Of a DNA stretch of 64,000 nucleotides, positions 2,056-36,024 are shown one piece after another; position 1 is the first letter of the stretch; each line of letters starts with the position of its first letter. A model generated the notes under the pieces. The model saw nothing but the letters and a program-made list of their open reading frames with translations, was not told where the DNA came from and ran no database searches. This DNA comes from Escherichia coli (GTDB lineage Bacteria > Pseudomonadota > Gammaproteobacteria > Enterobacterales > Enterobacteriaceae). Where the stretch lies: assembly GCF_003790525.1 (NCBI RefSeq), contig NZ_CP033635.1; one strand, written 5' to 3'. The position numbers and the translations under genes were made by a program.

Positions 2056-4946
<2,891 letters not shown>

Positions 4947-25676: not shown

Positions 25677-25704
25677 TTGACTTATAAGTCTCAGAAAGTA
25701 ATAT
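25677..25704 (+). promoter_or_regulatory. Candidate promoter for the serV-arg tRNA operon
   Basis: TTGACT, 16-nt spacer, TAATAT, then a GC-rich discriminator (gtgcgcc); about 60 nt upstream of serV. Confidence 0.4.
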
Positions 25705-25766: not shown

Positions 25767-25859
25767 GGTGAGGTGGCCGAGAGGCTGAAGGCGCTCCCCT
25801 GCTAAGGGAGTATGCGGTCAAAAGCTGCATCCGGGGTTCGAATCCCCGCCTCACCGCCA
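25767..25859 (+). tRNA. serV: tRNA-Ser (anticodon GCU)
   Basis: 93-nt cloverleaf with long variable arm, GCT anticodon and CCA end; begins GGTGAGGTGGCCGAGAGG. Confidence 0.9.
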
Positions 25860-25862
25860 TTT

Positions 25863-25939
25863 GCATCCGTAGCTCAGCTGGATAGAGTACTCGGCTACGA
25901 ACCGAGCGGTCGGAGGTTCGAATCCTCCCGGATGCACCA
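25863..25939 (+). tRNA. argV: tRNA-Arg (anticodon ACG), copy 1
   Basis: GCATCCGTAGCTCAGCTGGATAGAGTACTCGGCTACGAACCGAGCGGTCGGAGGTTCGAATCCTCCCGGATGCACCA, 77 nt. Confidence 0.9.
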
Positions 25940-26003
25940 TCTCTTACTTGATACGGCTTTAGTAGCGGTATCAAAAAATCTGCAGTAAAGTAAGTTTCCC
26001 GAT

Positions 26004-26080
26004 GCATCCGTAGCTCAGCTGGATAGAGTACTCGGCTACGAACCGAGCGGTCGGAGGTTCGAATCCTCCCGGATGCACCA
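26004..26080 (+). tRNA. argY: tRNA-Arg (ACG), copy 2
   Basis: Identical 77-nt tRNA-Arg sequence. Confidence 0.9.
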
Positions 26081-26142
26081 TCTCTTACTTGATATAGCTT
26101 TAGTGGCGGTATCAATATCAGCAGTAAAATAAATTTCCCGAT

Positions 26143-26219
26143 GCATCCGTAGCTCAGCTGGATAGAGTACTCGGCTACGAACCGAGCGGTCGGAGGTTCG
26201 AATCCTCCCGGATGCACCA
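26143..26219 (+). tRNA. argZ: tRNA-Arg (ACG), copy 3
   Basis: Identical 77-nt tRNA-Arg sequence. Confidence 0.9.
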
Positions 26220-26282
26220 TCTCTTACTTGATATGGCTTTAGTAGCGGTATCAATATCAGCAATAAAATAAATTTTCCCGAT

Positions 26283-26359
26283 GCATCCGTAGCTCAGCTG
26301 GATAGAGTACTCGGCTACGAACCGAGCGGTCGGAGGTTCGAATCCTCCCGGATGCACCA
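26283..26359 (+). tRNA. argQ: tRNA-Arg (ACG), copy 4
   Basis: Identical 77-nt tRNA-Arg sequence; its 3' flank differs from copies 1-3. Confidence 0.9.
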
Positions 26360-26473
26360 TCTTCTCCGTAATCTTCAGCAATGAAGATATCGAAGAGGTA
26401 GCGGTATTAACCGCAGGCACCAGGGAGGATAACGCCGGCCAGCAACGGCCCGAAGGGCGAACGCCAGTGAGTC

Positions 26474-26499
26474 ATCCTCCCGGATGCACCATCTTCTCC
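26474..26499 (+). repeat. 26-bp direct repeat of the tRNA-Arg 3' end plus trailer
   Basis: atcctcccggatgcaccatcttctcc is identical to 26342-26367, the 3' end of copy 4 and its trailer. Confidence 0.7.
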
Positions 26500-26638
26500 A
26501 AAAAATTTCCTTCAAAAATATCTCATTTCTAAATAACTACTTTATCCATTTCCTGAATTTTCTTCTCCTTCGCCATCAGCGACAAAATCAAGCAATTACG
26601 CTAAAGTAGCGTCATATTTTTCGACTTGCGAGAAGACC

Positions 26639-27205
26639 ATGTACGAGCGTTATGCAGGTTTAATTTTTGATATGGATGGCACCATCCTGGATACCGAGCC
26701 TACGCACCGTAAAGCGTGGCGCGAAGTATTAGGGCACTACGGTCTTCAGTACGATGTTCAGGCGATGATTGCGCTTAATGGCTCGCCCACCTGGCGTATT
26801 GCTCAGGCAATTATTGAGCTGAATCAGGCCGATCTCGACCCGCATGCGTTAGCGCGTGAAAAAACAGAAGCAGTAAGAAGTATGCTGCTGGATAGTGTCG
26901 AGCCGCTTCCTCTTGTTGAAGTGGTGAAAAGTTGGCATGGTCGTCGCCCAATGGCTGTAGGAACGGGGAGTGAAAGCGCCATCGCTGAGGCATTGCTGGC
27001 GCACCTGGGATTACGCCGTTATTTTGACGCCGTCGTCGCTGCCGATCACGTCAAACACCATAAACCCGCGCCAGACACATTTTTGTTGTGCGCGCAGCGT
27101 ATGGGCGTGCAACCGACACAGTGTGTGGTCTTTGAAGATGCCGATTTCGGTATTCAGGCGGCCCGTGCAGCAGGCATGGACGCTGTGGATGTTCGCTTGC
27201 TGTGA
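26639..27205 (+). CDS. yqaB: HAD-family sugar phosphatase YqaB
   Basis: 188-aa ORF with the HAD motif I FDMDGT near the N-terminus. Confidence 0.9.
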   Translation: MYERYAGLIFDMDGTILDTEPTHRKAWREVLGHYGLQYDVQAMIALNGSPTWRIAQAIIELNQADLDPHALAREKTEAVRSMLLDSVEPLPLVEVVKSWHGRRPMAVGTGSESAIAEALLAHLGLRRYFDAVVAADHVKHHKPAPDTFLLCAQRMGVQPTQCVVFEDADFGIQAARAAGMDAVDVRLL

Positions 27206-29267: not shown

Positions 29268-29340
29268 AAAAAGGCCACTCGTGAGTGGCCAAAATTTCAT
29301 CTCTGAATTCAGGGATGATGATAACAAATGCGCGTCTTTC
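29268..29340 (-). ncRNA. micA: MicA (SraD) small regulatory RNA
   Basis: Minus-strand sequence GAAAGACGCGCATTTGTTATCATCATCCCTGAATTCAGAGATGAAATTTTGGCCACTCACGAGTGGCCTTTTT matches recalled MicA, including its terminator hairpin and U-run; it lies in the gshA-luxS intergenic region. Confidence 0.8.
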
Positions 29341-35934: not shown

Positions 35935-36014
35935 GTAGGTATGATAAGACGCACCAGCGTCGCATCAGGCATTGTGTACAGAGCGGCGGATGAGGCAAAA
36001 ACGCCTTATCCGCC
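35935..36014. repeat. REP/BIME element
   Basis: gtaggtatgataagacgcaccagcgtcgcatcaggc...ggcggatgaggcaaaaacgccttatccgccc. Confidence 0.7.
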
Positions 36015-36024
36015 CGAATAAAAA

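Follow-up and report, generated by a model that had tools for sequence, protein, structure and literature searches.

Why does the 3' end of the last of four tRNA-Arg genes occur a second time a short distance downstream, in a stretch of 64,000 nucleotides of Escherichia coli DNA (hereafter the window)? The sequence ATCCTCCCGGATGCACCATCTTCTCC was found exactly at 26342-26367 and at 26474-26499 on the + strand, and the distance of 106 bp between the two copies agreed with that given in an earlier, sequence-only reading. The repeat cannot be put down to chance, as any match to the 26-mer, with up to three mismatches, was recovered in 0 of 100 dinucleotide-preserving shuffles of the window. Its first copy comprised the final 18 nt of the fourth tRNA-Arg(ACG) and 8 nt of trailer, while tRNA-Arg copies 1-3 matched the 26-mer with three mismatches, every one of them in the trailer. 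Start to start, the two repeat copies lay 132 bp apart, a shorter period than the 139-141 bp of the tRNA units. The sequence-only reading had proposed the scar of an integrase-mediated insertion, a decayed fifth tRNA or a miniature insertion as possible sources of the second copy.

The locus followed the order csrA - serV - four tRNA-Arg(ACG) - yqaB and was identical to that of E. coli SMS-3-5 over 3.6 kb. Plain spacers of 62-64 nt separated the four tRNA-Arg genes of the window. The features surrounding the repeat were as follows:

25677..25704, + strand: promoter-like site TTGACT-16-TAATAT upstream of serV, likely the operon promoter (consensus scan)
25767..25859, + strand: tRNA-Ser(GCU), serV (ARAGORN; Rfam tRNA model, 56.8 bits)
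25863..26359, + strand: four identical tRNA-Arg(ACG) genes (ARAGORN; Rfam tRNA model, 67.1 bits each)
25863-25939, 26004-26080, 26143-26219 and 26283-26359, + strand: tRNA-Arg(ACG) copies 1-4, respectively (ARAGORN)
26342..26367, + strand: repeat copy 1, made of the T-stem 3' strand, the acceptor 3' strand and ACCA (18 nt), then the trailer TCTTCTCC
26598..26621, + strand: weak terminator-like hairpin with a T run, upstream of the yqaB start at 26640 (consensus scan)

The promoter assignment is to be read as weak evidence, since promoter-like sites found in the consensus scan were no more numerous than in shuffles; the terminator-like site, from an equally weak scan, was the sole one found and lay downstream of the second repeat copy. 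Elsewhere in the window, the Rfam scan at gathering threshold returned a match to the MicA sRNA (29269-29340, - strand), a match just at threshold to the REP-derived naRNA4 (35938-36015, - strand) and a lone tRNA-Met (60181-60256, + strand).

The second tRNA-Arg 3' end is very probably the 3' terminus of a 132-nt RtT-like module, a structured RNA element residing in tRNA operons and related to the RtT RNA of the tyrT operon. The 114 bp past the last tRNA-Arg and the second tRNA 3' end make up one module (26360-26491), the first base of which directly follows the CCA of the fourth tRNA-Arg on the same strand. All copies of this Arg type that were seen with an upstream tRNA likewise began directly after its CCA. 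The parts are arranged as a trailer U(A/C)UUCUCC, hairpin A, hairpin B and a closing helix that encloses three small hairpins:

26360..26491, + strand: Arg-linked RtT-like module, entire unit (covariance model, 116 bits, E 3e-25)
26361..26398, + strand: hairpin A, with core stem 26371-26377 / 26382-26388 (RNAfold)
26401..26414, + strand: hairpin B, GCGGU-AUUA-ACCGC (both-side changes in 3 of 5 pairs)
26417..26430, + strand: closing helix, 5' strand GCACCAGGGAGGAU (predicted pairing with 26474-26487)
26433..26447, + strand: hairpin 1, degenerate, with CGCCG for CGUUGC facing GCAACG (non-pairs in the model alignment)
26448..26458, + strand: hairpin 2, GCCC-GAA-GGGC, the most conserved piece of the RtT core
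26459..26473, + strand: remnant of hairpin 3 and GAGUC junction, of the terminal-copy type GAACGCCAGUGAGUC
26474..26499, + strand: repeat copy 2, made of the closing-helix 3' strand (26474-26487) and ACCA (26488-26491), then the trailer TCTTCTCC

The predicted fold of the window copy reached -53.5 kcal/mol (z = -4.5 against shuffled controls), and module copies from K-12 gave z values of -4.0 to -6.6 against their own controls. The 5' strand of the closing helix resembled the acceptor 5' strand of tRNA-Arg (GCAUCCG, with two changes) joined directly to the T-stem 5' strand (GGAGG), and the helix thus imitates the coaxial acceptor/T-stem arm of a tRNA. Its 3' strand is the tRNA-derived AUCCUCCCGGAUGC, followed by ACCA, so that the 18 nt at 26474-26491 are identical to the 3' end of the upstream tRNA-Arg. 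From the start of the closing helix through ACCA, the module measured 75 nt in the window and 78 nt in K-12, compared with 77 nt for the tRNA. Within the acceptor-like part (26417-26423, alignment columns 60-66), nearly all of the 21 copies (7 species) shared two mismatches or bulges, with GCACCAG facing CGGAUGC where the tRNA has GCAUCCG; the Arg-type closing helix gives the impression that a perfect acceptor stem is being avoided.

The structure was assessed on an alignment of these 21 Arg-type copies, and standard pairs occupied 96.4% of the paired cells. Both sides had changed in five pairs, of which three belong to hairpin B (GC to AU in 7 sequences, for one) and two to hairpin 3 (GCC/GGC to GGC/GCC). 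The covariation score was reached by 0 of 500 column shuffles, a control that ignores sequence relatedness, and sliding the pairing partners along the alignment destroyed the pairing. RNAalifold independently predicted the same architecture. The closing helix, hairpin 1 and hairpin 2 were near-invariant within the Arg type and carried no covariation signal of their own. Hairpin A was omitted from the pair counts and folded copy by copy, the MAFFT registers differing between genera; a hairpin was predicted at its position in most copies from other genera, with differing sequences. Identity between genera rose from 56% in the leader to 86% in the core and 97% in the tRNA-derived end. For the RtT family itself, covariation-supported pairs, among them a tandem GA motif, have been obtained with CaCoFold (PMC7657543).

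Rfam alone did not reveal what the module is related to. At gathering threshold, no RtT match was obtained anywhere in the 64-kb window, and for the window copy such a match was absent even at E<=10; the link surfaced through better-preserved copies from K-12, Klebsiella and Salmonella. RtT RNA (RF00391; rttR/rtT, tyrT-tyrV operon) has been known since 1991 and is usually regarded as peculiar to the tyrT operon. Published descriptions have it processed from the tyrT transcript and possibly linked to the stringent response. Arg modules scored 22-46.6 bits against RF00391, for which the gathering score is 45 (22-41.5 bits for all copies except one truncated copy at 46.6), and copies linked to Tyr, Pro and Lys scored 57-137 bits. 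The four RtT units of the K-12 tyrT-tyrV operon reached 133-137 bits, each ending in the tRNA-Tyr 3' end paired to an upstream GGGGAAGGA. When Arg modules were aligned to RF00391, a near-identical core emerged (AACGUUGC-loop-GCAACGGCCCG.AGGGCGAG-hairpin-GAGUAAUCC). The likeness of the Arg module interior to the Tyr RtT core had a score reached by 0 of 500 shuffles, while that to the tRNA-Arg interior was reached by 108 of 500 and was not significant.

A covariance model of the Arg type, built from 20 copies of 7 species with the window copy left out, matched 26360-26491 end to end (model positions 1-133) as the sole such match in the 64 kb. The same model gave 23-62 bits on the Tyr, Pro and Lys types. 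The window copy kept hairpin 2 and the junction, with the 5' strand of hairpin 1 mutated and hairpin 3 weak. The CGUUGC/GCAACG pairing of hairpin 1 was kept in all other Arg-type copies, and the Arg type as a whole possesses the RtT core: hairpin 1, GCCCGAAGGGC, a GA-flanked hairpin 3 and GAGU(A/C)AUCC.

RtT RNA and the Arg module share several traits of organization. Both immediately follow a tRNA gene and share its strand, both end in the last 17-19 nt of the cognate tRNA, CCA included, paired to a complementary 5' strand, both contain the core AACGUUGC-loop-GCAACG-GCCCGAAGGGC-GA-small hairpin-GAGUAAUCC, and both occur as tandem repeats in variable number. The Arg type differs from RtT RNA in lacking about 40 nt of the RtT model (approximately positions 20-65), namely a T-arm-like hairpin and a UCGAGCG..AGCGAGAG segment, so that UAA and hairpin 1 come directly after the closing helix. 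It also differs in having a leader of its own, with hairpins A and B, and a longer closing helix of 13 bp that spans the whole acceptor strand. Arg-linked copies bore no annotation in the E. coli records inspected, where a Pro-linked copy was labelled 'RtT sRNA' by PGAP, and no description of them was found in the literature searched; older work, such as the tRNA gene mapping of 1990, may have noted the repeats. The window copy is a slightly degenerate, unannotated member of a short, Arg-linked variant of the RtT family.

The module was widespread, and its number varied among strains. The 114-nt spacer (26360-26473) was present in 5351 of 5426 complete E. coli genomes, always on the chromosome, with 1-6 matching places per genome; in all six genomes inspected, the count of places equalled that of Arg-linked modules. 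A K-12-like strain carried a module of about 134 nt, with the same 18-nt tRNA ending, after argV, argZ and argQ. Modules followed tRNA-Arg copies 1, 3 and 4 in K-12, copies 1 and 4 in CH4793, all four in Ec-FL1-1X and only the fourth in SMS-3-5. One terminal copy bore a hairpin 3 of the internal-copy type, and terminal copies of some strains showed internal deletions or a damaged CCA end. E. coli WB61 (L035) had a single tRNA-Arg with a plain spacer joined into the middle of the module core, and in the copy of E. coli 980-2 (L036) the 5' strand of the closing helix was absent and hairpin 1 was halved; these changes are deletions within the array or, in WB61, possibly a collapse of the assembly. 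The window allele was rare (90 genomes at >=99% identity). Between SMS-3-5 and K-12, the terminal module differed by 7.8% and its flanks by 1-3%; given this divergence and the deletions and damaged CCA ends, selection on the E. coli terminal copy looks weak.

The same module was found within the csrA-serV-Arg array of Salmonella houtenae, Klebsiella pneumoniae, K. aerogenes, Enterobacter sp. Bisph1 and E. cloacae, and Arg-type copies also occurred in Superficieibacter electus and Citrobacter werkmanii; among the matches listed, these genera represent a lower bound. In Klebsiella an extra gene stood between the array and yqaB, and the module remained with the tRNAs, which ties it to the tRNA array rather than to yqaB. 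A role as a leader of yqaB was rejected on this ground.

RtT-like cores were not confined to tRNA-Arg. A scan with the core pattern, one genome per species, combined with ARAGORN and yielding a lower bound for taxonomic range, placed such cores 3' of tRNA-Tyr(GUA), tRNA-Pro(CGG), tRNA-Lys(UUU) and tRNA-Arg(ACG), variously by genus, in Citrobacter, E. albertii, Enterobacter, Superficieibacter, Klebsiella, Rahnella and Acerihabitans (among the matches listed), and 3' of tRNA-Arg(CCG) in Marinobacterium. Again among the matches listed, and counting those with an upstream tRNA in the DNA retrieved, 57 of 63 RtT-like copies ended by repeating the final 17 nt of that tRNA, with at most one mismatch. 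The Tyr, Pro, Lys, Arg(CCG) and 5S versions each had, upstream of the cognate end, a strand complementary to it.

Some members of this wider set departed from the common arrangement. In S. electus (L085:99-221) and E. albertii (L068), an RtT-like core lay between the 5S rRNA gene and tRNA-Thr(GGU); this element ended in AACUGCCAGGCAU instead of a tRNA end, as did a partial 5S copy just upstream, had GGCAGUU upstream as complementary strand and scored 30 bits with RF00391, below threshold. Marinobacterium lutimaris (L126, minus strand, approximately 3320-3700 in reversed coordinates) displayed two tandem RtT-like units with a 177-bp period after tRNA-Arg(CCG), which shared only the T-stem part AAUCCCUCCAG of the tRNA end and then diverged; with these units, the RtT family extends outside the Enterobacterales. 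In C. werkmanii (L060:6772-6891), a short RtT-like form directly followed the first tRNA-Lys of a Lys/Val cluster and resembled the Arg type in having GGAUAACGUUGC directly after the closing helix. This short Lys form was detected, without annotation, at >=80% coverage in 3550 of 5426 E. coli genomes (H134-H141).

These distributions bear on the readings in which the repeat records an insertion. Direct repeats of a tRNA 3' end, from the T-loop to the CCA, are the usual signature of tRNA-targeting integrases, and a repeat that is exact over 26 bp fits the proposal that an island or prophage entered at the 3' end of the last tRNA-Arg, duplicated its att core and was later lost, with about 106 bp left behind. 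Such a history can be given next to no credence. The spacer was conserved at this locus in E. coli and other genera and occurred up to four times per array, internal tRNA copies included, as would suit a conserved tRNA-operon trailer and not a scar. The two flanks of the array, each represented by a unique 1.2-kb anchor (one ending before serV, the other beginning past the second 26-mer), stood at most 1.7 kb apart in 5409 of 5425 E. coli genomes, which leaves no insert above about 1 kb, and the one inspected among the 16 genomes with split flanks had an IS4-like ISVsa5 transposase within its array. What the comparison of genomes returned is thus essentially a conserved trailer of the operon, and not strains with further DNA between the repeats. 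Searches of the spacer against phage and plasmid records produced no meaningful match, the apparent ones being mislabelled chromosomes with the same locus. The core pattern GCAACGRCCCNNAGGGYGA hit 29 loci in viral contigs, mostly chance matches in coding DNA; the four real copies were Tyr- or Lys-linked and mostly situated at, or close to, an end of a predicted prophage contig. The same core, with other cognate ends, also followed tRNA-Tyr, -Pro, -Lys and 5S rRNA. The locus therefore resembles the attL/attR sites of tRNA-integrating islands and prophages in its direct repeat of a tRNA 3' part, T-loop to CCA and beyond, and differs from them in that there is neither integrase nor foreign DNA, the apparent insert being a conserved structured module, repeated in the array and found beside 5S as well. 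A small mobile element, whose RtT core would insert at the 3' ends of stable RNAs and leave the repeat as a target-site duplication, would account for the finding that at least six kinds of host gene (Tyr, Pro, Lys, Arg-ACG, Arg-CCG and 5S) have their own 3' end on both sides of the same core of about 60 nt. Here the geometry of the suggested miniature insertion does fit, but the element itself is missing: no transposase or integrase was associated with the RtT core, the 5' strand of the helix and the internal T-arm-like hairpin of the long forms are host-specific too, beyond what simple duplication would give, the Arg-linked copies seen with flanking genes were all at the csrA-serV-Arg locus across genera, and variation in E. 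coli concerned copy number within existing arrays, not new insertion sites. This explanation is accordingly very improbable, and there is neither mobile element nor scar at the tRNA-Arg array. Two observations stand beside this. In E. coli GPEC1054 (L159:5536-6744), an ISVsa5 transposase gene lay right after the third tRNA-Arg, the only large insertion seen at the locus. In the viral contig IMGVR_UViG_2660238126_000002 (L024:4550-4837, minus strand), in which ARAGORN found no tRNA, the 5' side of a Tyr-linked RtT unit was cut by an unrelated sequence resembling an IS end.

Decay raises a different set of questions. That the module is a recently decayed fifth tRNA-Arg, a pseudogene from tandem duplication with a middle drifted beyond recognition, agrees with the length of the closing helix with ACCA, with a unit period close to that of the tRNA units, and with helix ends that do derive from tRNA-Arg (GCACCAG and GGAGG, similar to the acceptor and T-stem 5' strands, and the last 18 nt); only in these helix ends did the sequence-only reading come close. 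The interior argues otherwise, as it was no more similar to tRNA than shuffled sequences were, was 86% identical between genera and recurs in the RtT elements of other tRNA operons, and both ARAGORN and the Rfam tRNA model were silent on the module. The interior is an RtT core and not a decayed tRNA, the module is old and constrained, and recent decay can hardly be upheld; an ancient tRNA-derived origin of the helix ends is plausible. More weight, while still on the unlikely side, attaches to the possibility that the SMS-3-5 module is a non-functional relic, a transcribed trailer kept by linkage to, and recombination with, the tRNA array. In favour of this, the single Arg-linked copy of SMS-3-5 has a broken hairpin 1, divergence within E. 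coli is about 3-5 times faster for the terminal copy than for its flanks, deletions and damaged CCA ends are seen in other strains, and the window allele is rare. Against this, the core is well conserved between genera, the hairpins of the far more variable leader are kept through compensatory changes, at least one copy is kept in nearly all E. coli genomes, and the RtT family has the covariation-supported pairs and tandem GA motif mentioned above. The window copy may nonetheless be decaying.

With an RtT-like module as the preferred reading, the repeat itself can be accounted for. Repeat copy 2 is the beginning of a truncated second repeat unit, and tRNA end, trailer and module would together form a 1.2-copy tandem repeat with a period of 132 bp, much as RtT units recur behind tyrV in the tyrT operon. 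Through unequal recombination or gene conversion among tandem units, modules would be made and erased and the 3' fragment would be held identical to the tRNA; recombination between tandem units is the most likely source of the variation in module number. By analogy with rtT RNA, the module would be co-transcribed with serV and the four tRNA-Arg genes from the serV promoter, and its tRNA-like helix with ACCA may let the nucleases of tRNA 3' processing release it and trim it to a defined, protected end.

Other RNAs offer partial parallels. Lalaouna and colleagues reportedly described 3'ETS-leuZ, in 2015, as an RNA derived from a tRNA-operon spacer; the module would likewise be a by-product of a tRNA operon released by tRNA processing nucleases, but it is not known to have a base-pairing target or a link to Hfq, and it is closed and highly structured, with a tRNA-like end, and not a single-stranded sponge. 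Minihelices of the tRNA acceptor and T-stem, and tRNA-like domains such as that of YrlA, provide a further comparison. The module shares with them a continuous acceptor and T-stem helix that ends in single-stranded ACCA. Unlike them, it has a three-hairpin junction in place of the T loop and two conserved mismatches or bulges in the acceptor part, and it escapes every tRNA model used.

For the window, these results remove an island or att scar as a false lead. For the organism and its relatives, they mean that most E. coli and several other enteric genera have a shorter relative of RtT RNA in their tRNA-Arg(ACG) operon, mostly below the Rfam threshold. The more interesting by-product is that each copy of the family bears its own host RNA's 3' end and a 5' strand to match it. 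It is conceivable, if rather doubtful, that RtT-like elements are a single old 'hitch-hiker' RNA family of gammaproteobacterial stable-RNA operons, which imitate the end of their host so that the host maturation nucleases excise and protect them, the three-hairpin core being the payload. If so, the payload could serve, for instance, as a platform for binding proteins or could mimic an uncharged tRNA end and so bear on the stringent response, and the Arg-linked short form would represent the minimal functional unit. The regularity of the host ends gives a concrete, testable idea of how RtT-like RNAs are released and stabilised, for which the Arg form is a minimal version to work with, and the number of modules from strain to strain constitutes a natural experiment on recombination in tRNA arrays.
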